Notes under the pieces: model-generated
Seen by the model: the letters and a program-made list of their open reading frames with translations, nothing else
What the model was told of the DNA's origin: nothing
The model's database searches: none
NCBI GenBank assembly: GCA_964629545.1
Contig: CAZVRY010000001.1
Location: 27,305-91,304 of the forward strand
Direction of reading: 5' to 3'
Length of the DNA stretch: 64,000 bases
From: an uncultured Verrucomicrobiota bacterium
GTDB taxonomy: Bacteria; Verrucomicrobiota; Verrucomicrobiia; Limisphaerales; CAZVRY01
Translations under genes and position numbers: made by a program
Shown: positions 9,919 to 47,049 of the stretch, piece by piece
Position numbering within the stretch: position 1 is the stretch's first letter
Layout of the letters: each line of letters begins with the position of its first letter

Positions 9919-12900
9919 ATGATGCAACGCGAGAAATCGACGAAATGGTGTCGGACCCTGGCCCTGGCGATCGGCCTGGGCTTGACCGGGGAGACCCAGG
10001 CCGGCGGCGGCCTGAATGGTGACTTTACCACCGTCAGCTACCTGAACCCCGGCTCCGAAGAATTCCTCTACTTCACCCCCGCCGATCCCACCCGGCTCCA
10101 GGTGAAGGCCAACGTCAGCACGGTGTTCACCGTCACCACCCCCGGCGCCATCGGCCAATACCGTCATGTGGTGCGAATGCTCGATACGTCCGGTCAGCAG
10201 GTGATGATCCGGACCGAGGACGGCACCTCCACACCCCAACTGGCCTTGCCGGCCTTCACGGTGAGTGCCGCGGGGACGCCCACGCGGCCGCTGGCCTTGA
10301 CCCTGGCCGACGCACCGCTGCCTGGCGCGACCCGGTTGAACCCTTACACCAGCTATCGGATCGAGGTGACGCTGCAATACTTCTCGGCCGGCGCGTGGGT
10401 CAACGAAGGTCCGCTTGGCCACTCGCCTGGCCGCCGCTTCTTTCATTTCCCCAACCGGGTCAGCGGGGATCCTGCTCGGAATGTCATCACGGAAATTATT
10501 TCAGCCCGCTGGATTCGCACCTACGGCATCGACACCTCGGTCGAGACGGAGCGCGGCCTGGAGGCGGAGGTGAGCTACCTGGTGTTTCGTTACGACGACT
10601 TTGAATCGCCCCCGGCGCTGGCCGACGTGCCGATGAGTTTAACGGTCGGCGTGCGGGCCGGCAGTTCGGGCATCGTCACCCCCACGGAAACGGAGGACGT
10701 GCCCTTCGCCGTGCCGACGACGAGCTATCGGATGGCCGGCGGGCCGGCGCCATGGCGCAGCGCCCTCTTCACCCGGCGAATCCGGTTTGGCCCGAACGCG
10801 CCCCTGCCATCCGCCACGGAAAGCGCCTTCTGGGCGGCGATCACCCTCTTGCACCAGGAAGACTCGACCTCACCCTGGACCTCCGGCAACCCCAAGGACA
10901 CCGACGCTGCCCCGGTCCTGCATTTCAACGGTCGCCTGGCCTGGGGCAACGTGATCACCACGATCACCGACATCGCCAACGACCCGACAGCCTCGTTCAC
11001 GCGGGAACCGGGAGCCGTGATCATGACGCTCAAGCTGAGCGGATTGGCGATTCCGGAAGCTTCGATTCCGTCGGTGCCGGTGGATGCGGAAGTGCGGGTG
11101 AGCCTCGCCGATTCCGGCGATGCGCAGGTGCTGGACGGCCATGCCTCGCTCGTGCTGCCCCCGACGGTGCGCGAGCGCCACGGTCTTCGTTATCGCCTGG
11201 GCAATCCGGTCCAATTGGGGCCGGAGGGCGCCGAGGCGGACGTGACTCTGCTCCTGCCGGCGGGCATGGGCGTGGGAAGGCCTGGGGAAGCGCTGCGCGC
11301 GACGCTGACGGCGCGTCTGCGGTCTTTCAACGTGCGGCTGGAACCGACGGGCACGAACGACTTCCCGCTGGCCCTGACAGACCAGGTCGTGCTCGACACG
11401 CGCCCGCTCTACTTCCAGGCCCCCAGCTTGAGCTGGAGAGTCGAGGTGGGCGATTTGGTTTTTGTGCCATCGGCGGTCGATTACGTCCGGCGCGAAGCTT
11501 TGGCCACCCTGGCCACGTTCACGGACCTCCCGCTGGAACAGGTCATCAAACCCTCCAACGAGCGCTACTACGAATTCGTGTCGGGCCTGGCCGGGACCGC
11601 CGTGGTCCGGATCACTCCGGAAGGTCGCACCGGTCTAACCGCGCGGATGGCCATCGCGGCGGGCCAGTTCATTCCTCACTTCCCGCTCGGGGTCACGACG
11701 GCTTGGACCTCTGGCGATCTGATCCTCACCGACGATCTGCCGGCGATCCCGACCAGCGGTCTGTTTCCGGCCGGCGCGATGATGGTGGAGTATGAGCAAG
11801 GCTGTCCCGACGGCCCTTGCGCGGGACAAACGGCGGGGCTCGAGTTCGAGACGGCGAAGCTGTTCTTCACCCCTGACAGCGGCCTGGTCGCCGACGGGTC
11901 GGCGCCGGGGGCTTCTGGCAACAGCCTGGCCTGGGGGCACAACCCCGGTCGCAACGTGTTCGCGCACGGGGTGGGCCCGTTTTACCAAGCCGGCTATGCC
12001 ATGGCGGGGCACGTTCTGTTGGGAGGGGCGATTCCCACCGCCGAGATCGCGCAAGGCCCGACAGCCCTTTTGCAGGCGGGGGCGGTGTTCAATGGCGTGG
12101 GCGGAGAAACGACGATCCGCATGATTCGCCCGGGCAGCGCTGCTTACGCGCGCGGTTTGGGGCATTACCCGGGCCTGAATCTGCGGCGCGCGGTGGAAGC
12201 GGACCCGGCCGGCGTGCGGGGGCGTGCCCGCTTGGGGGATGCGGCCGCGCCAGCGGAGTTTGAAACCTCAGCGCGCGTGCAATACTACGCGCGGCGTTCG
12301 GGCGTGAGCGGGCTGCACGAGGCGGCGGAGGGCGGATTTCCTCCGGGAGCGCTCCAAATCTACGGATATCCGTTCGAGTTCGCGTCGTTCGCCCTGAGTT
12401 TCCTTTCGAATCAGAACGAGGATTCGGCCACGCGCTGCCGGGTTCGGGTGCCGTTCCCGGTGGATGAGACGCTGCACCTGGACGAGCTGACGTTCACCTG
12501 CGTCGGGGCGCCGCGGGGCGCAGGGATTGCGGCTGGGCGGGACGCGTTACGCTTCGTCTACTGGCTGGCCGAGGTGGACGCGCGTGGAGTCGAGTTCGCG
12601 CCGCAGAACCCGGCGGACGCTACCTGCGACGCGGCCGAGAAGCGCTTCCTGGGCCTGGGCTCGGTGGTGCACGTCTCCGGGGTCCAGACCACCCTCGCCG
12701 GCACCCTCTACCTGTCGCCGTTCGGTTTCATCATCACGCCGGCAGACGCGGAACGCCCGGCCGGCCGGTCGCTCTATTTGGGGGCTGGGGCCGTGGTGAC
12801 GGTGGCGGGGGCAATGGATGCGGCCAGCCCTCCAGTTCCGACCGAGTTCTACTCGATGGTGCTGGCGAAGGCCTACTTCAACGACTCCAGGGCGGATAGC

Positions 12901-15333
12901 GGTGTGGGCTGGCTGAACCTGTTTGGCCACGTGCGCCTGCCGTTCTACGGTTCGACGGCAGCACATCTGACGGCGGGAGCGACAAAGAACCTGGCGGATC
13001 CATACTACTTCAACGGCGGCTGGAGCGAAGGCGGGTTGGCGGCTGCGGATCCGGCGGGGGATCCAGCCCACCGCGGTAAACCGGGCGGGGGCATGACTTG
13101 GCGCGACTATCGCGAAGGAATCGATTACCCGGTCGAGGCGCGCGGCGAGTTCCTTGACGTCATTAACCTGAGCTTCCCGCTGCTCTGGCATGCTGCGTTG
13201 CGCGAGTTCAGCGGCGCGGATCCCATCGCCAGCAGCATCCTGGTTGTCCATACCCAACGCGAGTTGCACCGGTTGTCCGCCGAGGACATTCAAATCCAGT
13301 TCGGTGCCGAGAAGAATCTCCCTCGCCTCCTGCCGACCCTGCGGACGATCGGGTTGGTGGACACGAGCGGGGGTGTGGCGAGCCTTGGGGCGAAGATTGC
13401 CGAGGCCTTGGCCGAACCTGCGTTGGCGGATTTTGAGCAAGGGCTCGCGTCGTTGCGCACGGTAGCCGGCGAGCAATTGCAGACGCAATGGCGGCAGATG
13501 GCCGGCCAGATGGTGGCTCGCATCGCCCCCGAGCTGCGCAACGCCCTCCGGGCCGCCTGCCCGGAGGGTGGAAGTTGCGACGAAGCGGCGCTGGCGGCGA
13601 CGGCTCGCGCGATGACCGACCGGTTGCGCCTGGACGAACGGACGCTGTTGCTGGGCGAAGAGGTGCTCGAACTGGGGCTGCGTCCGCAATTGACTCGCAA
13701 TCTCACCCAAGCGGCCGAAACGCTGGAATACTTGTTCGACGAGGAACACGGGGTCTTCAGCGGCGGCGTGGGCGGTGGCAGCCTGCGCTCGGCCAAGGTC
13801 ATCCGGGCGCTGCTCGTCGCCGCCTTCGAGGATGACGTGGAGCCCTGGATCATCGAGCTGATCGGAGCGATGGGCCACCCGCTCCTCGACCAGATCCTGG
13901 CTCCCCTCCAAGGAGATCTCAGCCGCATGGCTTCGGTCCTGGCCCGCCTGGCGCAGCGTGCCCGCCAGATCCGGGATCGTTACGCGTCCGACGATGGGGA
14001 CCTCTACCTCGAGTTGCGCGCTCTCTTCGGCGATCCCCTGGTGGTGGCCGAACTCAACGGCATCCTCGAGCGACTGGCCTCTGATCTCGCCGAGCGAGCG
14101 GCCCGGCCGCGCTGGGTCAGCGAGCACGTCGGAGAAGCCGGGGACGAACTCGAGCGTCAGCTCTCGGCCGACCTAGCCAACCTGCTGGTCACCTCGGACT
14201 TCTTCCGCCGTCTCGATCGGATCTTGAGTTACCACTTGCGCGGCTTTGAGGAAGCCGCCGTGGCTGGCCTGGGGGACGGACTGGGCCTGGTTCAGCGCAT
14301 GATCCGGACGGCGGCCCGCGAGCTCCTCCGGCTGGGCGATGAGATTGCCTCCAACATCCTGTCGGAGCCGTGGCAGAAGCGCCTGATCTTTGCCAAGGCC
14401 GAGGGTTACGCCTGGTTCAGCGGCGACGAGGTGCGCAAGCTCCGGATCACGGGCGAAGGCGGCGTGGATTTCGGGGAGGAATACAAGTTCAAGACGGGCG
14501 TGAAATTCGAAGTGAGCGCACTGGATTCCGAAGGCGAGGTGTCTTGCGGCACGGGCGGAGCCGTTAAGGCGACCGAGTGTCTGCTGGAATTCTCCGTGGC
14601 CACCAGCGCCAGCGCCGAGGTGGCGGCTCCGTTCGATCCACGTTACGACAATATCCTGACGCACCCTGAACCGGAGGTCCAGACCACCTCCGAGTCTTTC
14701 GCCGTCTACCTGAAGGCCAGCCTGGACGGGAGCGACACCATTAGCGGCTTCGGCGGAGGGTTCAACTGGCCGGCCAACCGCAAGTTCGGCTCCGTGCTCG
14801 TCAAGCGGGTGGCCGGCGCGGCCATGTTTGGCGCCGCCGAGAACTACCTCGCCGGCGCCTTGGAGGCGCACTTCGGCGACGAGGGCGGAGTGGATCTCCA
14901 GGGTGGTTTGTTCCTGGGCCGAACGTGTTCTCGCACCCCGCTCGTCGCCATCAGCCCGCGGGTCGGCCGCTTGCTCGGCCCTGGCGAGCGACCCTTCACG
15001 GGATTCTACGTCTACGGCGAAGGCTGGGTGCCGGTGCTTTCGGCCTCCTGCCTGCTCAATGTCTCGCTCGGCGCAGGGGTGGGTGTTCTGGCCGACTTCG
15101 AATCCAGCCGCTACGGCGGGACGATCCTCGGCGGAGTGAAGGGCCGGGTCCTCTGCGTAATGTCCGCCCAGGGCGAGCTCGAACTGAGCGGCGTGGGGAG
15201 CGAGGAGGGACTCGTGCTGGACGGCGCCCTCCGCTGCCGGCTCGAACTCGGCGCCTGCCCCTTTTGCGTGGCCTTCTCGAAGGAATTCGGACTGACCTAC
15301 CGATCCGCACCCGACACTTGGGAGACGCGCTGA
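9919..15333 (+). CDS. Giant cassette protein 1, copy A (1804 aa, secreted, no family recognised)
   Basis: Signal peptide 'KWCRTLALAIGLGLTGETQAGGG'. It is colinear along its whole length with 41617..47049 (-). Example: 'DPTRLQVKANV...QYRHVVRMLD' versus 'DPTRLQVKVEV...QYRHVVRLLD'; 'LGACPFCVAFSKEFGLTYR' versus 'LGSCPFCVGLTKGFHFTYR'. Its stop overlaps the next start (TGATG). Confidence 0.85.
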   Translation: MMQREKSTKWCRTLALAIGLGLTGETQAGGGLNGDFTTVSYLNPGSEEFLYFTPADPTRLQVKANVSTVFTVTTPGAIGQYRHVVRMLDTSGQQVMIRTEDGTSTPQLALPAFTVSAAGTPTRPLALTLADAPLPGATRLNPYTSYRIEVTLQYFSAGAWVNEGPLGHSPGRRFFHFPNRVSGDPARNVITEIISARWIRTYGIDTSVETERGLEAEVSYLVFRYDDFESPPALADVPMSLTVGVRAGSSGIVTPTETEDVPFAVPTTSYRMAGGPAPWRSALFTRRIRFGPNAPLPSATESAFWAAITLLHQEDSTSPWTSGNPKDTDAAPVLHFNGRLAWGNVITTITDIANDPTASFTREPGAVIMTLKLSGLAIPEASIPSVPVDAEVRVSLADSGDAQVLDGHASLVLPPTVRERHGLRYRLGNPVQLGPEGAEADVTLLLPAGMGVGRPGEALRATLTARLRSFNVRLEPTGTNDFPLALTDQVVLDTRPLYFQAPSLSWRVEVGDLVFVPSAVDYVRREALATLATFTDLPLEQVIKPSNERYYEFVSGLAGTAVVRITPEGRTGLTARMAIAAGQFIPHFPLGVTTAWTSGDLILTDDLPAIPTSGLFPAGAMMVEYEQGCPDGPCAGQTAGLEFETAKLFFTPDSGLVADGSAPGASGNSLAWGHNPGRNVFAHGVGPFYQAGYAMAGHVLLGGAIPTAEIAQGPTALLQAGAVFNGVGGETTIRMIRPGSAAYARGLGHYPGLNLRRAVEADPAGVRGRARLGDAAAPAEFETSARVQYYARRSGVSGLHEAAEGGFPPGALQIYGYPFEFASFALSFLSNQNEDSATRCRVRVPFPVDETLHLDELTFTCVGAPRGAGIAAGRDALRFVYWLAEVDARGVEFAPQNPADATCDAAEKRFLGLGSVVHVSGVQTTLAGTLYLSPFGFIITPADAERPAGRSLYLGAGAVVTVAGAMDAASPPVPTEFYSMVLAKAYFNDSRADSGVGWLNLFGHVRLPFYGSTAAHLTAGATKNLADPYYFNGGWSEGGLAAADPAGDPAHRGKPGGGMTWRDYREGIDYPVEARGEFLDVINLSFPLLWHAALREFSGADPIASSILVVHTQRELHRLSAEDIQIQFGAEKNLPRLLPTLRTIGLVDTSGGVASLGAKIAEALAEPALADFEQGLASLRTVAGEQLQTQWRQMAGQMVARIAPELRNALRAACPEGGSCDEAALAATARAMTDRLRLDERTLLLGEEVLELGLRPQLTRNLTQAAETLEYLFDEEHGVFSGGVGGGSLRSAKVIRALLVAAFEDDVEPWIIELIGAMGHPLLDQILAPLQGDLSRMASVLARLAQRARQIRDRYASDDGDLYLELRALFGDPLVVAELNGILERLASDLAERAARPRWVSEHVGEAGDELERQLSADLANLLVTSDFFRRLDRILSYHLRGFEEAAVAGLGDGLGLVQRMIRTAARELLRLGDEIASNILSEPWQKRLIFAKAEGYAWFSGDEVRKLRITGEGGVDFGEEYKFKTGVKFEVSALDSEGEVSCGTGGAVKATECLLEFSVATSASAEVAAPFDPRYDNILTHPEPEVQTTSESFAVYLKASLDGSDTISGFGGGFNWPANRKFGSVLVKRVAGAAMFGAAENYLAGALEAHFGDEGGVDLQGGLFLGRTCSRTPLVAISPRVGRLLGPGERPFTGFYVYGEGWVPVLSASCLLNVSLGAGVGVLADFESSRYGGTILGGVKGRVLCVMSAQGELELSGVGSEEGLVLDGALRCRLELGACPFCVAFSKEFGLTYRSAPDTWETR

Positions 15334-18300
15334 TGAACACCCTGCCCATGAACCGACCGTTCGGAAATTCAAAGCTCAAAGTTCAAAGCTCAAGGCGTCG
15401 TCCCCGTCCCTCGTCCTCGTCCTCGAGCCCCGGTTTATGGTCCCGATGCGCGTTCACTCGAACGTGGAAAGCCAACGGTTGGCTGCCCATCCTGGCCCTG
15501 CTCGGCGTTCTCTTTGTCTCCAGCTTCGAGCCTGCGCTGCACGCCCAAACGGCTACTACCGCCGGCACCTCGCTTCGCAGCGCCGACGGTCGCACCTGGG
15601 CTTACCTGACCTGGAACTCGGATCAACCCGAGTTCCTGCAACGCGCCGTCATCGCCGTCTTTCGCAAGGACGGAACGGCCGACACGGCCGGCGATTACCG
15701 GTTGGTCTCCGTTTTGAAGCGCGATCCTGAGACCGCCGTCATCCGGGCCGCGCTGCAACGGGCGCAACAGATCGGCGAGAACCTGGTCATGGTGGGCGAC
15801 TTGGTCCAAAGCGCCTTCGCCGAGTTGGTCCCGGCTCCCACCCTCCCGCTCGAAGAGAAACTCCAGGTCATCTTCGCCACCGCCCAAGCCCGGCCGGATA
15901 CCGATCGCTTGCTCCAATTCCTAACCCGTACCCAACCGGCCTTCGCCCTCGCCGCCGGCCAGGCTTTTGCCAGTGAAATCCCGTCCGGCGCCCCCACGAC
16001 TTTCGAGTTGCGCGTGTGCGACCGCATCCCCGCCGAGGCCGGTCTCGAATGCACGACGGTCATGGGGCGTGTCACCGTCACCGGCGGCTCCTTCGCGCCG
16101 TTGCCGGCGCCGGGGATTCCCACCGACGTGAGTTGGCGCGGGCCGCGTGGCGATTTGAATGTGCGCCTGCTCTGGGCCACGCCCGATCCGCTGCGCGCCG
16201 AGGTCATGCTCCAGAGCGGCTTCCAGGTTTATCGAGTGACCCCAGCCCATTACGCGGCCCACTTCGCCGCCCGCGCGCCCGAGCCCGGTGAACTGGCGCG
16301 CTTAAGCCAAACCGAACCGACCGCCGTCGGCCTGGTCAACCTGCAACCGGTGTATCCGAATGAACGATTCAACGACACCGAAGTGCAGGCCTTCCGCCTC
16401 CGCCGGCAAGCCGAGGACGGCACCACCGATCATCCGGATCTGAACCCGATTCCCTTTTTCACCGTGGATGACAACCACCGGTTCGAACCGGGCGGACGTC
16501 CCTTCCAGGACGGCGACTCATTCTACTACTACGTGGTGGCGCGCGATTTCCTCGGCCGCGAGGGCCTGCCTTCCCTCCCTGCCCTCATCACGATCTGCGG
16601 GCGACGCGCCCCGGTCATTCCCAAGGAGGTCACCGTCGAAATCGCCTCGCTCTTCAATCCCGCCGCGCCGGGCCCGGAGAAGCGCGACCAATTCTTCAAC
16701 GTCCGATGGGCGCGCAACCCCACGAACCAAGAAGCCGTGCCGACCGATGCCTACTGGGTTTACCGTTGGAATTCGCCGGAGGAAGTGGTGACGCCGCCCG
16801 TCGCCGGCGCCCCGCCGAAGCTGCCGTTCAAGACAATTTCCGCCGGCGATCGGCGCAACTTGTTCTATGAAGCGGCCGATGATGGCGCGGGACGTCCCCT
16901 GCTGCCGGATGCCGATCAGAAGACCTATTGGTACACCGTTCGGGCGGTCCGCCACGCGCCGTGCAACGACGATCTTGTCTCCGGCCATAGCCCACCCGTG
17001 CCCGGCGTGTTGCGCGGATGGGAAGGACCGGGGCGGGCCGATGGCGAACTCACCGTGCTTTGCCACGAGCCGCGGGCGGAATTTGTGTCGTGGACTCCGC
17101 AAACCGTCGCCGTCCCGCCGCCGGGCATCCACGAACTCGAACTGGTTTGCCACCGCGAGGCCGGCGACCGTTCCACGGTTTGGGCGGAGTATTATCTCGC
17201 CACCCAGGACCAACCCGACCCGACCGGCGCCGGGTTGGGCGGCGATCGCTACCTCGGCCGCGTCTGGTTCGAGCGGGAGTCGCTAACGGCGACGCTCATG
17301 GCCCGGATTCCCCGCACGGTGGCGACTTCCGTCCGCATTCGGTGTCGGGTGGGCAGCGATCAGGGCACGGTTTCGCCCCCGGCCGACGGCGTGCTCACGC
17401 CGCTCGATGGCAAGTGGCCCAAGGCGCAAGTCGTGTTTCGCAGCGTGCCCGTTCCCGCCGTGCGCGCCGTGCTCGGCACCTGCGGCAGCGGACGTCACCT
17501 CACGCGCCATCCCGAAACTGGCCGGCTTGAACCGATCGGCGTGACCGTGCGTTACACCGACACCACCCGCGAACACCGCATCTATTTGTCGATCGACAAC
17601 GGACCCCTGGAGTTGGTGGCGCGCGGATCAGGGCCTCACTCGGCCGTCATCCAGGAGACGATCGAGAGCATCCCCGGCAATGCCGCCACTTTGTGTTTCT
17701 ATGTCCAGAACCTCGACAGTCAGGGACTGGCCGGGCCGATGACGTTCCTGGGTTGCGTGATAGCGGAGGGGCAACAGGAAATGCCGGTGCCCCTTTTGGC
17801 CCAACCGACGCCCGCCACCACTCCCGACGGCCGGTTCACCGTGGCTTCGCTGAAGTGGTTTTGTCCGCCGTTCGCGGTGGAGCGATTTCGCGTCCTGGTT
17901 CACACCGAAGATCCCGCCCTGTTGCCCGCCCGGCTCTCGACCGGGCTTTACGAGTCGCCCTCGACGCGCCTCGAACGTGTCGGGGGTAAGACGTATCGCG
18001 TTTACGAGACCGGCCGGGTGGGCGGGAACTTCGGGACGGCCGGCGACCCGAACTTCACCCTCGCGATCGAAGTCCAGCCGTCGACGAAATACGAGTTCCT
18101 GGTCCAGGCAGCCAGCAGACCGGACGACTTTGGGAACGTGGAACTCGGTGGGTTCAGCCGACCGGCTGAATTTCAGTGGTCGCTGCCAATCGCGGCGGGC
18201 GATGACGCGGTGGTCTGGCCGGCGCGCGGGTTGGATTTGGCCCAAACGTATGTTGCGGGGAGCCCGGTCCCCACCGTCCGGCCGCCTCCGGGCGATGCGC

Positions 18301-18809: not shown

Positions 18810-18819
18810 GGGCCAACCT

Positions 18820-25794: not shown

Positions 25795-25879
25795 GCCCGA
25801 AATCCGCGTTTCCATCGTGAATGGCTCCCCTTCCGCGAGGATTCGAGTTCGGAATGGTCTCGGGCGGGACCGGGGGGGC

Positions 25880-26718: not shown

Positions 26719-26893
26719 GACGATTTCCACCCAGTCTAATCCAATCGCGGGCAGATTTATTACAATAATCTCCGATGCCCGGCGAAATGGAGCCCGAGAG
26801 AGGGTTCGCCGCCTGCAGGCCCTGAATTGAGTGGCGCGGACGACCCCTGTTTCGGAATAATCCGGCGATGCCGCCGTCCTCATCCCCGGACCC

Positions 26894-27871: not shown

Positions 27872-27892
27872 TTCCCATAGCCTCTTGCCCTG

Positions 27893-29200: not shown

Positions 29201-29253
29201 CCCGTTCGTTAAGGACTCGAACGGTGTTAGAATCCGCGCCGAGGAGGTGGCGG

Positions 29254-38145: not shown

Positions 38146-41100
38146 GGAATCGTGATAGCGTCCGAGTGGGTGACGTTGTCCACTTCCCCCTGTTCCGTGA
38201 AATGAACGAGCACGTATCGATAAGTCGCCTCCTGCACGGCGGGTTGGGTATCCTTCAAGTAAAACCGCACGATCGAAGCAGGCCCGGCCGGAACGGCGCG
38301 CAAGTCCACGAACGGATCCAGAAACGCCGTCCGGTCCAGACTGTCGATGATGACCGTGCGATGCGCGATCGCGCGCATCAAAGGCGAAACCTGGATGACA
38401 TCGCCGGACACCCTCGGGAAGGCGTCGTTGGGAACTTGGTACCGGTAGAGCACGCCAGGGAAGATGGCCGGCCGGAGCAAGGGGTCGTCGTCCGCCGCGG
38501 CCCCCAGCAGGTCTTGGGGATCGACCACGCCCTCAAGGGTGGGTGCGCCGCTTTGCGGGTCGCGCCTAATCTCCCCACGCACCTCGCCGATCTGCACGCC
38601 GAGATGGAACCGGCCGGAGTCCGCGTCGGTCCATGACTGAGGATTGAACAGCCTTTCCGGTGGCGGTGGACGCACTCCCACGACTCCCCCGCCCCCCACC
38701 AACGGGGCCAGGGCTAGCAAACCTCGCGCCGGCCAGACGACTGGCGCATCGCCCGCAAATGGAGCGGGCGACCACTGGAATTGGACCGGTTGGCTGAAGC
38801 CTCCCATCTGCGTCCGGCCACGGTCATCCGGAGCGCTCACCGCCTGGACCAGAAATGTATATTCGACCGCAGGATTTACCTCCACCACAGCCGTGAAAGT
38901 CGTGTCGCCGGGACGGCTGAAATCGCCTCCCACTCGCCCGGTTTCGTAAATGCGATAGGTTTTTCCATCGACTATCTCCAGCCGGACCCCTCGCGCCGAG
39001 TAGAGGCTTGAGGAGATTTGCGAAGGCAGGAGGGACGGGTCAGCCGTTCCGATGAGCACGCGAAACCGCTCGACCGCGAACGGCGGACAGAACCACTTCA
39101 GGGTCGCGACGGTCGACCGTCCATCCGGGGCGGTGGCCCCCTGGGGCGGGGCGGGCATGGGGATGGGTAACTGCTGCTGGCCCTGGGCGCGAACGCAGGC
39201 CAGCAGCGTCATCGGTCCGGCCAGCCCCTGGCTGTCATAATTCTGCAAGTAAAAGCAAATCTCCGCGGAGTTTCCGGGGAAGCCTGTGAACCACTCCTGG
39301 ACGGTGACCGGAGGGTTGTTGGTGCCTCGAGCCACGAGGGACAAGGGACCGTTGTCGATGGCCGCGTAAATCCTGTGCTCTCGCATCGTGCCGGCGTAGT
39401 GCACGGCGATGCCGATGGGCTGAATGCGTCCCGTCTCAGGATCGACCGTGGCATGCGGCCCGCAATCGCCTAGAGCCGTCCGCTCCCCGCGCACCGGCAG
39501 GCTGCGGAACGTGGCTTGGCTTCTCGACCAGGCGTTCGCGATCGGTCCGATCACCCCATCCGCCACGGGAGAAACCGCCCCATGCGCAGCCCCCACCCGA
39601 CAGCGGACGCGCCAGCGGACCGCGTCCGACCGAGGGATCCGAGCCCGCAAGGTCGAGACCGTTTCCCCGGTTCTAAACCAAACGCGTCCCAGGTAGCGGT
39701 CGCCCTCCAGGCCGACGCCGGCCGGGTCGGGTTGATCGAGCGCCGCCAAGTAATATTCCACCCACACGGTCGTGCGATCGCCGGGCGTCCGCTGACAGAT
39801 CAGCTCCAGCTCCTGGAGGGAGAAGGGAGAGGGCGCGCTCGACACGTTAGCCCACGAAACGAATTCAACCTGCGGCTGCAGACAGAACGTACTGATCTCC
39901 CCGCTCGCCCGCGCCGGCCCGTTCCAGCCGCGCAGAACTCCGGGAACCGGCGGGCTGTGTCCGGATAACAACCGGTCACCGCACGGCGCCGACCGCACCG
40001 CACGCACGGTGTACCAATAGGTCTTTTGATCGGCCAACGGCAGCATCGGCCGACTCGGGGAATCCTCGTCGGCCTCGTAAACCAGGGTGGACCGGTCGCC
40101 GGCGGGGATTTCCTTGAGCGGCGGGTTGGGCGCGCCCGGAGGTGGGGTCGTCACTTCCTCAGGCGAGTTCCAGCGATAAAGCAGGTAGGAATCGGTCGGG
40201 ACGGCCGCACTGTTGGTGGGGTTCCGACTCCAACGGATCTTGAAGAACTGGTCGGCTTTCCCATCGGCTGGATTGAAGCTCGAAGCTACTTCCACCGCAA
40301 CCTCACGGGGCGGGATCGGTGCCAACCGGCCGCAGATCGTGATCAACGCAGCAGGGGAGGCCACTCCCTCGCGCCCCAGGAGATCGCGGGCGACCACGTA
40401 ATAATAGAACTGTTCGCCGTCACGGAAGGGCTGTCCGCCTGGATCGTAGCGCAGGTTGTCATCCACCGCGTTGTAAGGGATCGGGGATTCGCCCGGCAGG
40501 TCGGCGCTGACATCGCCGGTTTCTCGCCGAGCTCGGAAACCGGCCACCTCAGCTTCGTTGAAGGTCTGCTCCGGGAAGGCCGGTTGCCGGCTGACGCGAA
40601 TGACGGCGGCGGGCTCGGTCTGACTCAGCCGGGACAGTTCGCCGGGCGCCGGGACCCGCACCGCGAAGTGGGCGGCCTGAGCGGCCGGCGTCACCCGGTA
40701 GATCTGGAAGCCTGCCTGCAAAAGCGATTCGGCCCGCAGGGCATCGGGAGTAGCCCAAAGCAAGCGAACGTTCAGGTCACCCCGAGGTCCTCTCCAACTC
40801 ACGTCCGTGGGAATGCCCGGTGCGGGCAGGGGCGCGCCGACTCCTCCGACGACCGTGACGCGTCCCATCACGGTGGTGCATTCGGTCCCGGGGTTGGTGG
40901 GGATGCGATCGCACACCCGCAGCTCGAACGTAGAAGGTGAACCGGAGGGAACCTCGGCGACAAAGGCCTGCCCGGCCGCGACCGCGATGGCCGGCTGGCT
41001 TCGGACCAGGAACTGAAGGGTCTGGCCCATTTCCGGGATGCCTTGGGCCGCCGTGAAAACCAGCCGAAGCTTGTCTTCCAGAGGCAAGGCCGGGGCTGGG

Positions 41101-41606
41101 ACAAGGTTGCCAAAGGCGCTTTGGACGAGATCGTTGACCATGTCGAGGTTCTCGCCCAACTGCTCGGCCCGCCGCAGGCCCGCCCGAATAACCGCCGGGT
41201 CCACGGTTCGGTTCACCAGCGAAACCAGTCGATAATCGCCCGACGACTCGGGAGGGCCGTCCTTGCGGTAGACGGCGATCACAGCGCGCTGGAGGAATTC
41301 GGGCTGGTCCGAGGCCCAGGTCAAGTAGGCCCAGCAGCGACCATCAGGGTTGCGAACGGACGTGGCGGCCGTGGTGGCAACTTGAGCCTCCAGCGCGGAA
41401 AAGGCCGGTGCGCATAGCCACCCGACCGCACCCAACAGAATCGGCAACCACCGATGATGGGGCAGCAGACCTCGAAGTTGGCCCAGGCGCCAAGTCAGGG
41501 AATTTAGCCCTCGGCCTGCGGCCCTTCCCGGCGCAGTCCGGGGACCCGCGGGCGGCGTTTGCATCCGAGACGTCGCCACGAATGCCAATGATGGATTCAT
41601 GATCAT
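38142..41606 (-). CDS. Giant cassette protein 2, copy B (1154 aa)
   Basis: The ATG at 41606 lies 10 nt after the gene-1 stop. It has an N-tail and then the helix 'WLPILLGAVGWLCAPAF'. It is colinear with 15333..18809. Confidence 0.85.
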   Translation of the reverse strand: MIMNPSLAFVATSRMQTPPAGPRTAPGRAAGRGLNSLTWRLGQLRGLLPHHRWLPILLGAVGWLCAPAFSALEAQVATTAATSVRNPDGRCWAYLTWASDQPEFLQRAVIAVYRKDGPPESSGDYRLVSLVNRTVDPAVIRAGLRRAEQLGENLDMVNDLVQSAFGNLVPAPALPLEDKLRLVFTAAQGIPEMGQTLQFLVRSQPAIAVAAGQAFVAEVPSGSPSTFELRVCDRIPTNPGTECTTVMGRVTVVGGVGAPLPAPGIPTDVSWRGPRGDLNVRLLWATPDALRAESLLQAGFQIYRVTPAAQAAHFAVRVPAPGELSRLSQTEPAAVIRVSRQPAFPEQTFNEAEVAGFRARRETGDVSADLPGESPIPYNAVDDNLRYDPGGQPFRDGEQFYYYVVARDLLGREGVASPAALITICGRLAPIPPREVAVEVASSFNPADGKADQFFKIRWSRNPTNSAAVPTDSYLLYRWNSPEEVTTPPPGAPNPPLKEIPAGDRSTLVYEADEDSPSRPMLPLADQKTYWYTVRAVRSAPCGDRLLSGHSPPVPGVLRGWNGPARASGEISTFCLQPQVEFVSWANVSSAPSPFSLQELELICQRTPGDRTTVWVEYYLAALDQPDPAGVGLEGDRYLGRVWFRTGETVSTLRARIPRSDAVRWRVRCRVGAAHGAVSPVADGVIGPIANAWSRSQATFRSLPVRGERTALGDCGPHATVDPETGRIQPIGIAVHYAGTMREHRIYAAIDNGPLSLVARGTNNPPVTVQEWFTGFPGNSAEICFYLQNYDSQGLAGPMTLLACVRAQGQQQLPIPMPAPPQGATAPDGRSTVATLKWFCPPFAVERFRVLIGTADPSLLPSQISSSLYSARGVRLEIVDGKTYRIYETGRVGGDFSRPGDTTFTAVVEVNPAVEYTFLVQAVSAPDDRGRTQMGGFSQPVQFQWSPAPFAGDAPVVWPARGLLALAPLVGGGGVVGVRPPPPERLFNPQSWTDADSGRFHLGVQIGEVRGEIRRDPQSGAPTLEGVVDPQDLLGAAADDDPLLRPAIFPGVLYRYQVPNDAFPRVSGDVIQVSPLMRAIAHRTVIIDSLDRTAFLDPFVDLRAVPAGPASIVRFYLKDTQPAVQEATYRYVLVHFTEQGEVDNVTHSDAITIP

Positions 41607-41616
41607 GGGGCGGAAA

Positions 41617-44600
41617 TCACGGGGTGACCTCGAACGATTGGGTGCCGGGCCGATAGGTGAAATGGAACCCCTTTGTCAACCCAACGCAGAAGGGACACGA
41701 ACCGAGTTTCAAGCCAAGCTGGCCGGCACCGTCGTAATATCCTCCATCGTCGGTCCCCACGGCGGCTAAGGCCACGTCTCCCGTGACCGAAAGGACGCAG
41801 AGCAGATCTCCCTTTACTCCCAGCATCATCTGGCCTCCATAGCGATCCGACTCGAAGTCGGCCAGCAGCCCAACCCCCATCCCCCCCGAGAGTTTTAGCA
41901 TGCAGGTCAAGGAAACGATCGGGATCCAGCCTTCCGCGTAGACGTAGAACCCGGTGAATGGCCGGTCCGGCCCCGAGAGCAACGCACTCGCTCTCGAGTT
42001 GACCTGCACGATGGGCGCCCTGGTACAGGTCCGTCCAAGAAATAGGGCACCCTGAACCTCAACCTCGCCGCCCGGTCCCATGCCCCCGTCAAACGAACCG
42101 CCCAAGTAATTCTCGTGCGCCCCGAACAGACAGGCCCCTGCTACCCGTTTGATCTTCACGGCGCCGAACGTCCTGTCCGGGGACCAGGTAAACCCTCCAC
42201 CCAACCCAGCCAGGTCGTGGTCAGGCTCGAAGCTCGCCTTGAGGTGAATCGAGAAGGCCATGTTGTCCCGAACGTGCTCGAGTTCCTCGGGTCCCTCGCT
42301 GAACTCATCGAGACTGGGGTCGCTGGGAGCGTAGACCGTTCGGTCCGAGCTCTGGTCGACCGAGAACTCCAGCAAGCACTCGGTCGCCTTCACCTCATGT
42401 GGGTTGCCGCAGGAACGCTCGCCCTCGGAATCGAGGGCGTTGATTTCAAATTTGACCCCGGCCTCGAATTTGAACTCCTTGCCGAGATCGACTCCGCCTT
42501 TCCCGTTCAGCCGGAGCTTCCGGACTTCGTCATGGCTGAACAGCACGGATCCTTCGGCATTCCCGAATCCCATTATCTTGTCCCAGGGTTCCACGATCTC
42601 GTTGTTGAAGGCTTGGGTTGCCGCATGCAGGACTTGGCGGCCCGCGGCGTCCATCATCCGCTGGAACAAGGCCAGGGCATCACCCAACGCGCCCACCCCA
42701 TCCTCCTCGATGCTGCGCAGGTGGTAGTTCATGACCTGACCCACGTGGTGGTTGAGCTCGGACATTACCAACCGGTTCCCCAATTCCGATTCGAGCCACC
42801 GCTTCAAGGCGTCCTCTTCGCCCGCCACGCTGGTCACGTGCTCGGCCACCCAGCGGGGCGAGGCGGTCGCTTCCCTGATCAGATCCTCCTCCAAGCGACC
42901 CAACAGCGTCGTCATCTCCGTCACGGCGATCGGATTGGCGAACAGTTCGTGCAACTCGAGGTAAAGATCCCCGGTCTCGGAGCCATACCGGGACTTCAAC
43001 TGCGCCACTCGCGCCGCCAAACGCCCCAGCAGGGCGGCCATCCGACCCATCTCTGCATCGAAGGAGCTCACGTAAGGCTCGAGCGCGGGGTAATCCAGCG
43101 TTCGGTCCAGGGTCACCAAGTCGATGAACCGCTTGGCCATCTTGGCGATTCGCACGTGGGGTCCCGCGATTTCCCTCCGAAGCCACCCCACCTCGGGATC
43201 ATAGAGCCACTTGAGGTTCGACTCCGCGGCGGTCAGGGTGCTGATGAGGTCACGCCGCAACCCTTCCTCCAAGACCGCCTCCATACGCCGCAGGCGGCCA
43301 GCGCCCAAGCGCATTTCGATCATTGCTTCCTGCACCCCGCTTCGCAGCAGTACGGGGTCGCATCCCCCGCCTTCCGGACACGCCGCACGCAGCTTCTCGC
43401 GGAGAACGGGGAGCACCTCCGCCACCAGGGTCCCGGCCAGGATCCTCAACTGTCCGCTCATCCGCTCGCCCGCCAACGACCGGACGGCTGCGAAGCCATT
43501 CCTCATTTCTGCCGTCAGGGTTTCGCCCAATTCTGTGGCCATGACTTCGGCCAGGTTCCACTGGGCGCCGCCGGGTCCAGTCAGCCTCAGCTCCTTCGAC
43601 GTCAAACGAACGCGCGGGATGCCTTCATGAGTCGCCCCCAGGTCAATCTGGATATCGCTCGCGGAAAGTCGTTTGAGTTCGCGCGAGGTCTGGATAAGTA
43701 AGAGATTGTCGTGCTCTACAGGTTCGAGACCCATGAACTCGCGCGTCGTGGCCGTCCATTGGATGGGAAAACTCAAGTTGATCACATCGAGGAAATCACC
43801 CTTGGCGAAAGGCAGGTGGTCAAGCTGGCGGGACTCCCGATAGCTGCGCCAAGTCGTATCCGCGCCCGGCGGCTTGCCTCGGTGCGTCAGATCGCCGAGC
43901 GGCTCCCAGGCCGGGATCCTGTCTTCGGTCCACCCGCCATTGAAGTAATAGAGGCTCTCCAAATCGTCCCGCCTTGCCAGGGTCGTGAGGTGCACGGGCG
44001 TGGCGCCGTAAAAGGGCAGCATGACGTGGCCAAAGAAGTTCAGCCACCCCCTCCCGGGTGGAGGGTCGCCTCGCTCGTCGTTGAAATAGGCCTTGGCCAA
44101 AATGAGAGGGTAAAGCTCCTTGGGCCGAGCACCCTCGAGCGCTCCGGCCACAGAGACTACCGAACCCGCCCCGAGGTAAAACGAAACGCTCGCCGGGCGG
44201 TCGGTATCCGCCGGGGTGATGATTTGGCCAAACGGGGACAGGTAAAGCGTTCCCGCCAGCGACTCCAGCACCCCCGACGCATGCACCACCGCGCCCAGAC
44301 CCAGAAAACGCCGTTGCGAGGCATCGCAATCCGCAAGGAACGGATCCAGGGGCGAGAACTCAATCCCACGCCCGTCCAAGTCCGCCGTCCAGTAAGCGAA
44401 GCCCAGCCGGTCGTGACCTTCGGCGATCAACGCCCGGTCCGGAGCCCCCACACAGGTGAACGTCAACTCGTCGAGGTAAAACCGTTCCCCTACCGGCAGG
44501 GGCACCTGAATCTCGCAACGGGTCCCGGACTGGATGTTCAGGTTCGAGAGGAAAGTCAGCGCGAATCTCCGGAACTCGAACGGGTAGCGGTAGATCAACA

Positions 44601-47049
44601 AGGCCTCGGAGGGAAAGCCGTCGTCCGTCGCCTCATGCAACCCGCTCACGCCGGAGCGGCGAACATAGTATTTGGCCCGCGCGGACGGGGTGAAAGGCAC
44701 CGCGGCCGATGCGTCCCCCAACCGGGCGGAGCCGCGGATGCTGTTGGGATCGGGCTCGGCGGCGAGGGCGACGTTGAGCCCCGCGTAATGGCCGGCGCCC
44801 AACGCATACTCCGGCGTGCCTGGCCGGAACATCCGGATCTGCAGAACCCCGTCCACCATTTCTAGCGAAGCACCCGATGCCAGCATGACGGCCGGTCCGT
44901 TGGCGAGATCCAGGGGCGGGAGAACTCCGCCCAGGAGCACATGCCCGGACATCGCGAATGCGGCGGATTGGAAGGGGCCCACGCCATGGGCCATGACACC
45001 GCGGGCAGGATTGAGGCCCCAGGCTATGATGTTTGTTCCATGGGCCGTGGCCGGCCCCGTTCCCTCGCCCACCAGCCCGCTGTCCGGGGTAAAGTGGAGT
45101 TGGGGCGTCTCGCACACGGCCCTGGCCGTCTGCCCCTCGCAGTCTCCCTCGGGGCATCCTTGCTCGTAGTTCACCACGATGCGTTCAGTCGGATCCACGC
45201 CGCTCACGGCCGCCACGGCGACATCCTCCTGCAAAGACAGCCGTCCCGAACCCCACGCGAGGTTCACCTCGAGCGGGAAGTGCGACAGGAACTGCCCGGC
45301 GCCGAGCGACAGGTCGGCGGTGAGCGCCGTCCGGCCGGCGGCGTTCACGTGCACGTCCACGGAGGGCCCCGCCCCGGCCACGAATTGGTAATAGCGCTCG
45401 TTCGACGGCTTGATCCTCTGGAGCTCGGGCAGAAAGGTCATTGCTTGCAGGGAATCCAGCCAGGCAAAAGCCTCCCGGCGCACGTAGTCCACTCCGACTG
45501 GGGAAAAAGCCAGATGCCCCGCTTCGGCTCTCCAGGCCAAGGCTCGCGTGTCGAAGAAGAGAGGCCGCGTATCCAGGGCAATCCTTTCCCCGGCGGGGAT
45601 GGCAAACACGTTCGTCCCCTTCGGCTCCAACCGCTCGTTAAACCCGTTGGCATGCGTCGTCAGCCGTGACCGGAAGACCTGGCCTGGTTCCCCCACGCCC
45701 ATGCCTGCGGGAAGCTGTATGGTCACGTTTCCATCAGCCCCGTTCGTCCCCAATTGCAGTGGGGGCGGCAGAAAATAGCGGATCCCGGCCCGTTCGCGGT
45801 AGGTGGTGGGAAGCGTACACTGCGCCGTGCCCATCCACACGCGCGCCTCCCCGGAATCGAACAGCACGACCTGCACCTCGCCGTCCGCCGGAAACGGCGC
45901 GATCGAAGCGTCCGGGAGGGCGAGCCCGTTGACCTTGACCCGGGTGCGAATCCCGCCCGGCTCCCAAACCGCGTCGTCAGCAGGATTATTCCCAAGGTCG
46001 GTCAAGGTGGTAATCACGTGGCCCCAGGCCAGGCGGCCGTTGAAATGCAGCACGCGCGTGGGGTCGGAATCGTCGGTGTTTCCTTCAACCAACAACGAAG
46101 CCGGCGCCGGGACTTCCTCATGCGCGATGGTGACCACAGCCTTGAAGTTCGCTTCGGTGACCGATGGAAGTTGTGCGCGAGGACGGAACCGCACCAGCCG
46201 GGTCAGGGGTCCGCTCCGCCAGGGCAAACCTGGGCTGCCGCTCGTATGCGATGTGGTCAGGACGCTCTCCCCCGGGCCGTCCACCTCGGCGGGCGTCAGC
46301 TCCCCGGATCCACCCGCCCCCACGACGACCGCGAATCGCACCGTGATCTCCGTGTCAGCCGGCGGAACTGCAAATGCGTCGTAACGAAACACCTCAAACT
46401 TGACCTCCGCCGCCAGCCAACCGTCCTCGCCGGCCGCCGTATTCACCGCGCAGGTTCGCGTCCACCGCACGCTCTGGATGTCCGTGATGACATTCCGAGC
46501 GGGGTCTTCAGACAGTCGGTTGCGAAAGTGGAGGAAACGCCGCGCGGGCGAGTCGCCCGGCCCGCCTTCGTTAACCCAGGTGCCTGAAGAAAACCACTGA
46601 AGACCGACCTCCAGGCGATAGGTCGTATAAGGGCTCAGCCGCACGCCGTCGGCGAGCGCCACCGACAATGTCGCAGGAAAGGTCCCCGCCGCGGTCACCG
46701 GGAACGGCGCCATGGCCAGGCTGCTCGCGGCCGAACCGTCCTCCGCGCGCAACAGGACCGGAGTATTGGCTGCGTCTAGGAGCCGGACCACATGACGGTA
46801 TTGCGCGGAGACACCCCCGGCGGTGAAGGTGAATCCCGTATCGACTTCGACCTTCACTTGGAGGCGGGTCGGATCGGACGGGGCGAAAAACAGGTATTCC
46901 CCCCCGGGAGAATCGAGGGCAAACCTCACGCTGGCGACGACCCCGTCAATCCCTCCACCGGCCAGCGTCGGCAACGCTGGCAACACGAGCAGGAAAGCGC
47001 CGACGGCCGCCAGCGAACGTTTCACACTCGGCAAAATTACGGGTTTCAT
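41617..47049 (-). CDS. Giant cassette protein 1, copy B (1810 aa, secreted)
   Basis: Signal peptide 'SLAAVGAFLLVLPALPTLAGGG'. It is colinear with 9919..15333, including the conserved Cys motifs. Confidence 0.85.
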   Translation of the reverse strand: MKPVILPSVKRSLAAVGAFLLVLPALPTLAGGGIDGVVASVRFALDSPGGEYLFFAPSDPTRLQVKVEVDTGFTFTAGGVSAQYRHVVRLLDAANTPVLLRAEDGSAASSLAMAPFPVTAAGTFPATLSVALADGVRLSPYTTYRLEVGLQWFSSGTWVNEGGPGDSPARRFLHFRNRLSEDPARNVITDIQSVRWTRTCAVNTAAGEDGWLAAEVKFEVFRYDAFAVPPADTEITVRFAVVVGAGGSGELTPAEVDGPGESVLTTSHTSGSPGLPWRSGPLTRLVRFRPRAQLPSVTEANFKAVVTIAHEEVPAPASLLVEGNTDDSDPTRVLHFNGRLAWGHVITTLTDLGNNPADDAVWEPGGIRTRVKVNGLALPDASIAPFPADGEVQVVLFDSGEARVWMGTAQCTLPTTYRERAGIRYFLPPPLQLGTNGADGNVTIQLPAGMGVGEPGQVFRSRLTTHANGFNERLEPKGTNVFAIPAGERIALDTRPLFFDTRALAWRAEAGHLAFSPVGVDYVRREAFAWLDSLQAMTFLPELQRIKPSNERYYQFVAGAGPSVDVHVNAAGRTALTADLSLGAGQFLSHFPLEVNLAWGSGRLSLQEDVAVAAVSGVDPTERIVVNYEQGCPEGDCEGQTARAVCETPQLHFTPDSGLVGEGTGPATAHGTNIIAWGLNPARGVMAHGVGPFQSAAFAMSGHVLLGGVLPPLDLANGPAVMLASGASLEMVDGVLQIRMFRPGTPEYALGAGHYAGLNVALAAEPDPNSIRGSARLGDASAAVPFTPSARAKYYVRRSGVSGLHEATDDGFPSEALLIYRYPFEFRRFALTFLSNLNIQSGTRCEIQVPLPVGERFYLDELTFTCVGAPDRALIAEGHDRLGFAYWTADLDGRGIEFSPLDPFLADCDASQRRFLGLGAVVHASGVLESLAGTLYLSPFGQIITPADTDRPASVSFYLGAGSVVSVAGALEGARPKELYPLILAKAYFNDERGDPPPGRGWLNFFGHVMLPFYGATPVHLTTLARRDDLESLYYFNGGWTEDRIPAWEPLGDLTHRGKPPGADTTWRSYRESRQLDHLPFAKGDFLDVINLSFPIQWTATTREFMGLEPVEHDNLLLIQTSRELKRLSASDIQIDLGATHEGIPRVRLTSKELRLTGPGGAQWNLAEVMATELGETLTAEMRNGFAAVRSLAGERMSGQLRILAGTLVAEVLPVLREKLRAACPEGGGCDPVLLRSGVQEAMIEMRLGAGRLRRMEAVLEEGLRRDLISTLTAAESNLKWLYDPEVGWLRREIAGPHVRIAKMAKRFIDLVTLDRTLDYPALEPYVSSFDAEMGRMAALLGRLAARVAQLKSRYGSETGDLYLELHELFANPIAVTEMTTLLGRLEEDLIREATASPRWVAEHVTSVAGEEDALKRWLESELGNRLVMSELNHHVGQVMNYHLRSIEEDGVGALGDALALFQRMMDAAGRQVLHAATQAFNNEIVEPWDKIMGFGNAEGSVLFSHDEVRKLRLNGKGGVDLGKEFKFEAGVKFEINALDSEGERSCGNPHEVKATECLLEFSVDQSSDRTVYAPSDPSLDEFSEGPEELEHVRDNMAFSIHLKASFEPDHDLAGLGGGFTWSPDRTFGAVKIKRVAGACLFGAHENYLGGSFDGGMGPGGEVEVQGALFLGRTCTRAPIVQVNSRASALLSGPDRPFTGFYVYAEGWIPIVSLTCMLKLSGGMGVGLLADFESDRYGGQMMLGVKGDLLCVLSVTGDVALAAVGTDDGGYYDGAGQLGLKLGSCPFCVGLTKGFHFTYRPGTQSFEVTP

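Follow-up and report, generated by a model that had tools for sequence, protein, structure and literature searches.

Is a set of three neighboring genes for giant exported proteins, present in two convergent copies on one Verrucomicrobiota contig, a functional unit or a chance cluster of large adhesin genes, and if it is a unit, what does it build? The question is raised by a 64,000-nt stretch of contig CAZVRY010000001.1 from an uncultured Verrucomicrobiota bacterium (hereafter the window), in which an earlier, sequence-only reading had recognized the two copies, here termed cassettes A and B. We designate the three protein families P1, P2 and P3 in the order of their genes. Comparison of gene order and protein sequence across genomes indicates that the trio is a conserved, self-contained operon and no chance neighborhood of adhesins; it is a real, conserved, uncharacterized operon family specific to Verrucomicrobiota. 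We tentatively read P1, P2 and P3 as an outer-membrane-anchored tripartite surface or adhesion complex, deduced from architecture only, a proposal that we place just short of probable.

Layout of the two cassettes

9919..15333, + strand: A1, P1 family, 1804 amino acids (aa) (open reading frame (ORF), family alignment)
15333..18809, + strand: A2, P2 family, 1158 aa (ORF, AlphaFold2 (AF2) model)
18820..25794, + strand: A3 ORF, P3 family, ~2324 aa (TSP3_bac, family members)
30883..38145, − strand: B3, P3 paralog, 2420-aa ORF (BLASTP vs. A3)
38142..41606, − strand: B2, P2 paralog, 1154 aa (BLASTP vs. A2)
41617..47049, − strand: B1, P1 paralog, 1810 aa (BLASTP vs. A1, signal peptide)

All six ORFs are present in the ORF list exactly at the positions, and with the sizes and strands, that the sequence-only reading had given. 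Cassette A covers 9919-25794 on the plus strand (15876 bp) and cassette B 47049-30883 on the minus strand (16167 bp), together 32.0 kb, in agreement with the earlier estimate of half of the 64-kb window. The cassettes are convergent, colinear paralogs with the same gene order, P1-P2-P3. Their colinearity over the full length, also claimed before, was borne out by pairwise BLASTP, with 50% identity over 1799 columns for A1/B1 and 61% over 1153 columns for A2/B2, and 48% over 2183 columns for A3/B3. Global identities of the P1, P2 and P3 pairs (50.1%, 60.5%, and 46.6%) were even along the protein length. Cysteines are likewise kept between the copies, as had been noted: 14 of 16 Cys positions form aligned Cys-Cys pairs in P1, 11 of 13 in P2 and 7 of 14 in P3. 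The four junctions described as tightly coupled read as claimed (cgcTGATGaac at A1/A2, 10-nt spacers at A2/A3 and B1/B2, and ATGA at B2/B3); the coupling of A2 to A3 is itself doubtful, for reasons given below with the A3 start.

Since the DNA has a GC content of 66%, spurious ORFs, as may occur in GC-rich DNA, were considered. GC contents at codon positions 1/2/3 were ~0.68-0.71 / 0.49-0.56 / 0.76-0.82 in all six gene bodies. This pattern, together with hundreds of homologs found elsewhere, rules out chance ORFs and identifies the six ORFs as real genes.

A conserved operon family of Verrucomicrobiota

A word-indexed protein search, a method insensitive for low-complexity giants, returned 8 relatives of A2 and 5 of A1, and the contigs of these first relatives already displayed the P1-P2-P3 order at ~30% identity. 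Scanning a single genome of each GTDB species with a pattern and tblastn then gave 90 relatives of P2; we retained 80 loci. For synteny we used a set of 85 loci and tblastn with A1, A2, and A3 as queries. In all 85, wherever the contig extends, P1 preceded P2 and P3 followed it on one strand, so that adjacency, order and common strand mark both cassettes of the window as well as every one of these loci as far as its contig reaches. The median distance from the P1 stop to the mature N-terminus of P2 is 144 nt and that from the P2 stop to mature P3 is 118 nt, signal-peptide codons included. The same order and strand throughout the set argue that the trio is a unit and not a chance cluster of adhesins, which settles in its favor the synteny check that the sequence-only reading had put forward.

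One might suppose that P1, P2, and P3 are three large exported proteins that act independently and are merely co-transcribed, with no physical complex. Consistent with this, the families have no domains in common; profile-profile comparison of P1 with P2 and P3 found none. Yet the invariant order, strand and tight spacing at ~80 loci with ~25-30% identity, in both ancient subfamilies, are not what adhesin genes acting alone normally keep, and we regard independent action as improbable.

Nearly all carriers are labeled as Verrucomicrobiota and include Opitutales/Opitutia, Verrucomicrobiales, Prosthecobacter, Akkermansiaceae, Pedosphaera, and Limisphaerales; one is a Kiritimatiellae metagenome-assembled genome (MAG) and one the isolate Thalassobacterium sedimentorum. 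A few MAGs bear labels of other phyla, among them the carrier of locus L032, which nests within Verrucomicrobiota in the P2 tree. We take them to be binning or labeling errors. When 1.84 billion cluster representatives were searched exhaustively by HMMER with the C-terminal 1100 residues of A1/B1, 580 P1 homologs were obtained at E≤1e-3, 252 of them at E≤1e-30; most have 1750-2200 residues. The source names seen for the homologs were all "hypothetical protein".

At least eight MAGs hold two loci each, so the keeping of two paralogous versions, which the sequence-only reading had described for the window, is common:

JACQFQ01: L006 and L060
PXBO01: L008 and L046
PWMU01: L016 and L040
PXDC01: L018 and L033
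WYBW01: L020 and L056
JAHCLO01: L023 and L069
JBBRBM01: L015 and L065
JBGATF01: L061 and L066

The neighbor-joining P2 tree (83 sequences) contains an old split, in which one subfamily has long genes (P1 ~2100 and P2 ~1200 residues) and may share a genome with the other type. A2 pairs with P0001, its 90%-identical ortholog, and B2 is the sister of this pair within a small clade that also holds P0003, P0004, and L006. From this placement, the duplication that gave rise to A and B is judged to be recent and lineage-specific, unlike the ancient paralogy in other genomes. A 90%-identical cassette, with the same WD40 kinase, response regulator, P1, P2, and long P3, was found at L088 (contig Pedosphaerales_NODE_13302).

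A more distant arrangement was seen at L087 (ENA ERZ28013244, 70.7% GC; 2908-7762). There, a shorter P1-like protein of 1267 aa, P0014, which seems to lack the helical region, precedes a protein that has a signal peptide and an N-terminus weakly resembling the P2 pattern (hhalign E=0.011, probability 3.7%). P1-P2 pairs may exist outside the operon family as defined here.

Comparison with known families

Searches of the six proteins against Pfam, NCBIfam, PHROGs, PADLOC, and PDB turned up just a single bacterial TSP3 repeat that passed its threshold, in A3, and weak FG-GAP matches, both of them in P3. Sequence searches of PDB with single proteins gave chance-level matches only (E≥0.05), and profile searches of PDB with P1, P3, and the P1 C-terminal domain gave only compositional helical matches. 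PADLOC gave no match, and the one PHROGs match was marginal, to a group of unknown function, and lay on the second TSP3-like stretch; a phage or defense origin was thereby ruled out. A literature search found no description of a P1-P2-P3 operon. By these comparisons, no described system combines the P1, P2, and P3 families, and none of the three belongs to any curated family. The full-length match to a characterized system that had been named as a possible refutation was thus found neither in these databases nor by Foldseek, no match of a single domain made such a link either, and Pfam and NCBIfam showed none of the RHS/YD or toxin motifs whose absence from the six proteins had been noted.

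Start sites and export signals

Signal peptides were identified by eye from the sequences. A1 (residues 1-28) and B1 (MKPVILPSVKRSLAAVGAFLLVLPALPTLA, followed by GGG) have classical, cleavable-looking signal peptides, in keeping with the earlier claim for protein 1. Family-wide, P2 and P3 also begin with plain Sec signal peptides, and with such peptides found on all three families the extracytoplasmic location proposed for the trio is supported.

The Arg/Pro-rich N-tails that had been described for proteins 2 and 3 fared unevenly. In A3 this tail comprises 120 residues (18820-19179), with GC contents at the codon positions of 0.64/0.70/0.58, which is non-coding-like. It is more likely that A3 starts at TTG 19165 or ATG 19180 rather than at 18820, which would give an ordinary signal peptide, (M)ARREMWLALLLLLKLMFFPVQA followed by QG; the long A3 N-tail is probably untranslated. 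A later start makes the 10-nt coupling of A2 and A3 doubtful and leaves ~355 nt possibly untranslated. This stretch (window 18810-19180), which separates the A2 stop from the probable start of A3, is open in the A3 frame and could be a long intra-operon spacer that is not translated; the corresponding family median, measured to mature P3 and given above, is only 118 nt. The N-tail of B3 is shorter than that of A3 and its reading is ambiguous. In A2, no alternative start codon lies between Met6 and the hydrophobic segment, and in B2 the later candidates are limited to two TTG codons right where that segment begins. With no usable later starts, A2 and B2 probably do carry their Arg-rich tails of ~40-50 residues. 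Of the type-II anchor that had been suggested for proteins 2 and 3, what stands is thus confined to, at most, P2 of the window's clade.

In the lineage of L020 and L023, the N-terminus of P3 reads MKARLLILLCLAGC and contains a lipobox, LLCLAGC. P3 may therefore be lipid-anchored instead of soluble in some members.

P1, a candidate membrane anchor

13384..14370, + strand: helical region of A1, of apolipoprotein-like composition (AF2 helices, weak profile matches)
14386..15330, + strand: C-terminal Gly/Cys-rich beta domain of A1, ~300 aa, candidate outer-membrane anchor (alternation, C-terminal motif)

Neither A1 nor B1 has a Pfam, NCBIfam, PHROGs, PADLOC or significant PDB match. P1 consists of a signal peptide, a conserved region of ~1150 residues, a helical region of ~330 residues and a Gly/Cys-rich beta domain of ~300 residues. 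In an alignment of 35 sequences the N-terminal ~600 residues are weakly conserved and the best-conserved core lies at ~750-1150, with the motifs RSKYYVRxxGVSGIHEA, YGYxFxFxxFGLSFL, DVPFFEDxxVHLHT, and FDYPLxW; residues ~1156-1484 are poorly and the C-terminal ~300 residues well conserved. Some homologs have extra N-terminal modules, namely He_PIG, or MAM with PPC and HYR, or a right-handed Beta_helix, and another P1 matches LamG_3 at an unreported position.

Eleven polar residues are invariant in the 35 sequences: S546, N547, H587, N754, Y789, Y790, R792, H800, S836, D1048, and Y1064 (A1 numbering; ~546-1064, window ~11554-13110). These residues may belong to an enzymatic or ligand-binding site of the conserved core, to which no fold or family could be assigned (~546-1064).

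An AF2 model of A1 residues 605-1804, built from an alignment of 7 sequences, was poor (mean predicted local distance difference test (pLDDT) 39.7). Only residues 1156-1484 were moderately confident, and these were modeled as a bundle of helices of 33-55 residues each. The bundle fits the weak profile matches of this region to apolipoproteins and helical bundles (E ~1e-4), which are probably compositional. Among 10 P1 members, an Apolipoprotein match was found in one and Baculo_PEP_C in three, both probably from the helical region, their positions not being reported.

The Gly-rich C-terminal domain is characterized by long, strict alternation of hydrophobic and polar residues. Columns in alternating runs of at least 7 make up 18% of this domain vs. 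6% of the fn3-rich P2 and 4% of the P3 core, and the longest run is 13 vs. 9. AF2 gave strands of 11-15 residues here at low confidence, and long hairpins at pLDDT <50. Among complete P1 proteins, 42/59 end in F or Y, and 48/59 match [WFY]-x-hydrophobic-x-[FYWL] at the end. A terminal aromatic residue with alternating hydrophobics is the C-terminal beta-signal pattern of outer-membrane proteins.

The features of P1 can also be accommodated by a periplasm-spanning complex, in which P1-P3 would lie between the membranes as a structural tether or as a lipid or polymer conduit. P1 would then use its amphipathic beta domain and its apolipoprotein-like helices to bind lipid, or the outer membrane from its inner side. 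The weak apolipoprotein-type matches in the helical region and the faint TamB and MlaA matches in 2/35 C-terminal domains (E ~0.1; TamB 0.12) point this way, as does the Arg-rich tail with hydrophobic segment of P2 in the window's clade, a possible inner-membrane anchor. The strict, phylum-wide synteny suggests a housekeeping-type envelope role, and the operon and its surroundings contain no secretion system. The apolipoprotein, TamB, and MlaA matches are, however, not significant and probably compositional. LamG, He_PIG, HYR, MAM, and beta-helix modules, such as those found variably at the protein ends, are typical of proteins meeting external ligands, and frequent duplication and divergence better suit an environment-facing role than a core machine. 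We consider a periplasm-spanning complex unlikely. A lipid transporter of the AsmA-like/TamB type was rejected as a separate candidate, given the TamB match of only E=0.12 in 2/35 C-terminal domains and the cleavable-looking signal peptides of A1 and B1.

P2, a string of beta-sandwich modules

A2 consists of the Arg-rich N-tail, a hydrophobic segment at 51-69, an alpha/beta N-terminal domain and ~nine modules resembling fibronectin type III (fn3) or immunoglobulin (Ig) domains. Its AF2 model has a mean pLDDT of 66 with many blocks at 70-90, and shows the N-terminal alpha/beta domain with a helical insert at ~134-207, followed by the ~nine beta sandwiches. Foldseek searches of PDB and of viral models (BFVD) with the P2 model gave only generic strings of fn3, Ig, and macroglobulin (MG) domains, with probability 1.0, TM-scores ~0.1, and identities of 7-13%, and the N-terminal alpha/beta-plus-helix domain matched no structure. 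The model and Foldseek thus agree with the fn3-like modules that had been seen in protein 2; Pfam gave no fn3 match in A2 or B2.

In being a string of beta-sandwich modules, P2 resembles cytokine-receptor ectodomains, the MG strings of alpha2-macroglobulin and phage fibers. The likeness is at the level of the fold only, with no CxEQ motif and no Pfam fn3. Alpha2-macroglobulin itself was ruled out: the six proteins have no CxEQ thioester and no A2M Pfam match, and Foldseek TM-scores of P2 against its MG strings were ~0.08-0.1.

The Foldseek list for P2 also includes the Sap surface-layer (S-layer) protein of Bacillus anthracis and a Chlamydomonas mastigoneme, which brings to mind a surface coat, that is, an S-layer-like lattice in which three abundant subunits would tile the cell surface without discrete appendages. 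S-layer proteins often have calcium-binding repeats and Ig/fn3 modules, P3 has such repeats and the operon such modules, and the operon is self-contained. The Sap and mastigoneme matches are nevertheless generic (TM-scores ~0.06-0.1), sensor kinases and an extracytoplasmic function (ECF) sigma factor beside the cassettes suggest conditional rather than constitutive expression, and three obligatory subunits of 1100-2400 residues are unusual for an S-layer. Such a coat has, in our estimate, little probability.

An RGD tripeptide is present in A2 (272-274, window 16146-16154) and B2 (275-277) within a strongly conserved PRGDLNVRLxW; the family form of the motif is R-[GA]-[DH]-L-[NT]-V, in which G and D are not invariant. 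It is a tempting idea, by analogy, that this RGD might contact an integrin-alpha-like FG-GAP propeller of P3.

P3, a modular protein with calcium-binding repeats

A3 has an FG-GAP-like region at ~19240-20380 followed by an Ig-like domain, TSP3 repeats at 20893-21036 and ~22387-22515, and a C-terminal extension at ~22747-25791. The TSP3 and FG-GAP motifs that had been recognized in protein 3 were recovered with different strength. TSP3_bac scored 27.8 bits vs. a Pfam cut-off of 25 and was the only curated match above threshold, whereas FG-GAP_3 stayed below the Pfam threshold in A3. Among 38 P3 members, TSP3_bac was found in 28, FG-GAP_3 in 13, FG-GAP in 9, and CHB_HEX_C_1 in 5. Outside the TSP3 and FG-GAP parts, a PDB profile search with P3 gave no match.

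P3 shares TSP3 and FG-GAP-like repeats and the character of a large exported protein with CglD and MtsD, TSP3/integrin-like surface proteins of Myxococcus, and with FG-GAP/VCBS adhesins. It differs from CglD and MtsD in its NCBIfam scores, which are 18.4 vs. 400 bits for CglD and 33.9 vs. 800 for MtsD. These matches (NF033765, NF047639) are confined to residues 691-739, a TSP3 stretch of ~50 residues, instead of running over the full length, and the other ~1100 conserved residues match nothing.

The conserved core of P3 comprises the first ~1200 residues, and most members have 1150-1230 residues and no extension. Homology of A3 to these short proteins stops near residue 1308 and that to the long P3 of L006 near residue 1403. 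A C-terminal extension of ~1000 residues with no recognizable domain is common to A3, B3, and the P3 of L088, and is restricted to the window's clade; the very ends of A3 and B3 are near-identical. The long P3 of ERZ1426841 has LamG_3 modules instead.

Three giant proteins encoded by one operon, with a conserved N-terminal ~1200 residues of P3 followed by a lineage-variable C-terminal region, recall toxin complexes (Tc, ABC), which likewise have three very large proteins, a beta-propeller-like element and one variable C-terminal region. The operon might then encode a secreted multi-subunit toxin or polymorphic effector, in which P1 would serve binding and translocation and P3 would carry a variable C-terminal payload. 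For P1, Foldseek with the low-confidence model gave weak matches to TcdA1 and tripartite alpha-pore-forming toxins (E 0.05-0.5), and a profile search gave a weak sequence match to Hbl B. These structural matches are below significance for a model with pLDDT ~40. In contrast to Tc toxins, neither the six proteins nor the scanned family members (38 P3, 10 P1) showed an RHS/YD, SpvB, TcA/TcB or known toxin domain, all three proteins have Sec signal peptides, and most P3 proteins (~1150-1230 residues) end without any variable tail. The identifiable variable modules are binding modules (LamG_3), not enzymes, and the flanks are not conserved, so there is no recurring immunity gene. A toxin is accordingly rated very improbable.

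A putative outer-membrane-anchored complex

How the parts would work together as an outer-membrane-anchored surface or adhesion complex can be outlined as follows. P1 would be the base: after Sec export, its C-terminal amphipathic beta domain of ~300 residues would insert into or dock at the outer membrane, and the long-helix region and large N-terminal part would project from it. The ~nine fn3/Ig-like modules of P2 would form a stalk or spacer, and P3, with FG-GAP-like region, Ig-like domain, and TSP3 repeats, a calcium-stabilized head. Binding of particles, polymers or other cells would fall to the exchangeable ends of the complex, at the C-terminus of P3 and the N-terminus of P1, which bear either LamG, He_PIG, HYR, MAM, PPC or beta-helix modules or the extension of ~1000 residues. 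Expression would probably be controlled by the adjacent WD40 kinases, with a histidine kinase and response regulator for A, and an ECF sigma factor and Ser/Thr kinase for B; such separate regulators would let the two copies serve different conditions. The three-component surface or envelope structure proposed by the sequence-only reading thus finds backing as a conserved, exported trio, and its existence as a single physical structure is deduced from synteny.

In layout, P1 is closest to a classical (type Va) autotransporter, yet it fails the family test. The two have in common a Sec signal peptide, a very large N-terminal part, sometimes with extra adhesion-type modules, and a helical segment followed by a C-terminal beta domain of ~300 residues, with a beta-signal-like end in most members. 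P1 differs in having a helical part of ~330 residues instead of a short linker, and two obligatorily co-encoded giants. No PF03797, Omp85 or other barrel family, and no solved barrel, was matched by A1, B1 or the 35 C-terminal domains.

Several observations weigh against the surface complex as outlined. The beta-signal pattern, found family-wide (48/59), is degenerate in the two cassettes themselves, since A1 ends in WETR and B1 in FEVTP, both non-aromatic. The C-terminal domain of P1 has near-invariant Cys residues, including a CPFC motif, and conserved Cys residues are unusual in a membrane-embedded barrel. A PDB profile search with this domain gave no matches at E≤10, Pfam at E≤1 on 35 such domains gave no outer-membrane barrel family, and Foldseek with the A1 model (pLDDT 39.7) gave nothing below E=0.02. 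Without a barrel match, and with these degenerate ends in A1 and B1, we put forward the outer-membrane barrel as a hypothesis. TSP3 repeats and fn3 modules are also found in periplasmic proteins and do not by themselves place the complex at the surface; Pfam and the flank survey revealed no secretion or assembly factor encoded in the operon, and regulators adjoin only about a dozen of the loci.

A more elaborate version of the same proposal would be a hitherto unrecognized, Verrucomicrobiota-specific envelope machine made of three families that have no characterized relatives, in which an autotransporter-like P1, anchored in the outer membrane, displays P2 and P3 as a modular, calcium-dependent surface appendage and each of several paralogs is wired to its own WD40 kinase. 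We regard this version as less likely than not.

Verrucomicrobiota are abundant in soil, freshwater, ocean, and gut, and their envelope and surface structures are poorly known. At ~5000 codons per copy, the operon implies an important and costly function, while it is invisible to present annotation. Defining P1, P2, and P3 gives three annotation models, a phylum marker and a concrete target in cultured carriers. Should P1 prove to be a new outer-membrane anchor or translocator, it would add to the few known ways in which diderms display very large proteins. On present evidence the operon offers no new biochemical principle; it is a large, phylum-wide, unannotated envelope system, defined enough for testing.

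Neighboring genes

5558..8797, + strand: WD40 beta-propeller sensor histidine kinase, upstream of A (Pfam beta-propeller/WD40, HisKA, HATPase_c)
8794..9459, + strand: response regulator with HTH_11 output (Pfam Response_reg, HTH_11)
47156..47899, + strand: ECF-type sigma factor, divergent from cassette B (Pfam Sigma70_r2)
47928..51281, + strand: Ser/Thr kinase with WD40 beta-propeller, downstream of the sigma factor (Pfam Pkinase + beta-propeller)

The response-regulator and WD40 histidine kinase genes share 4 nt. This pair also lies ahead of the cassette in L088 and L020/L023, where response-regulator orthologs (64% identity) adjoin the cassette. Homologs of the sigma factor adjoin the cassette in L006, L066, L077, and L073. 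Full-length homologs of the Ser/Thr kinase (33-37% identity) flank it in L006, L066, L073, and L079, and L065 has a partial match. Beyond the WD40 kinases, response regulator and sigma factor, no conserved partner genes were found in the flanks. This recurrent, non-universal linkage suggests dedicated, copy-specific regulation of the cassettes.

Pairs of an ECF sigma factor with a Ser/Thr kinase, and WD40 sensor-kinase pairs, are typical of bacteria of the Planctomycetota-Verrucomicrobiota-Chlamydiota (PVC) group. The Sigma70_r2 and Pkinase-WD40 genes by B and the WD40-HisKA and response-regulator genes by A conform to these types; they differ in being neighbors of the cassette in a minority of loci, with a link to the operon that is deduced.

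An Rfam scan of the whole window gave no match, and a promoter and terminator scan between the cassettes gave nothing beyond chance. The 5 kb that separate the convergent cassettes hold genes unrelated to the operon: a Sigma70_r2 protein (26335-26988, − strand), a radical-SAM DUF3641 protein (26894-27871), a DUF2064+GT2 fusion (27893-29200), and a RadC/HHH protein (28879-29661). As listed, the ORFs of 26335-29661 partly overlap and their true starts are uncertain. Upstream, a classical two-component pair is encoded on the minus strand by a HAMP-HisKA-HATPase kinase gene (2340-3731) and an OmpR-type response-regulator gene (3728-4462). Two further large, exported-looking proteins, both unrelated to P1, P2, and P3, are encoded outside the cassettes: one of 1251 aa with a He_PIG Ig domain (54459-58214, + strand), and one of 1776 aa with three Listeria-Bacteroides (Flg_new) repeats and two fn3 domains (58546-63876, − strand).

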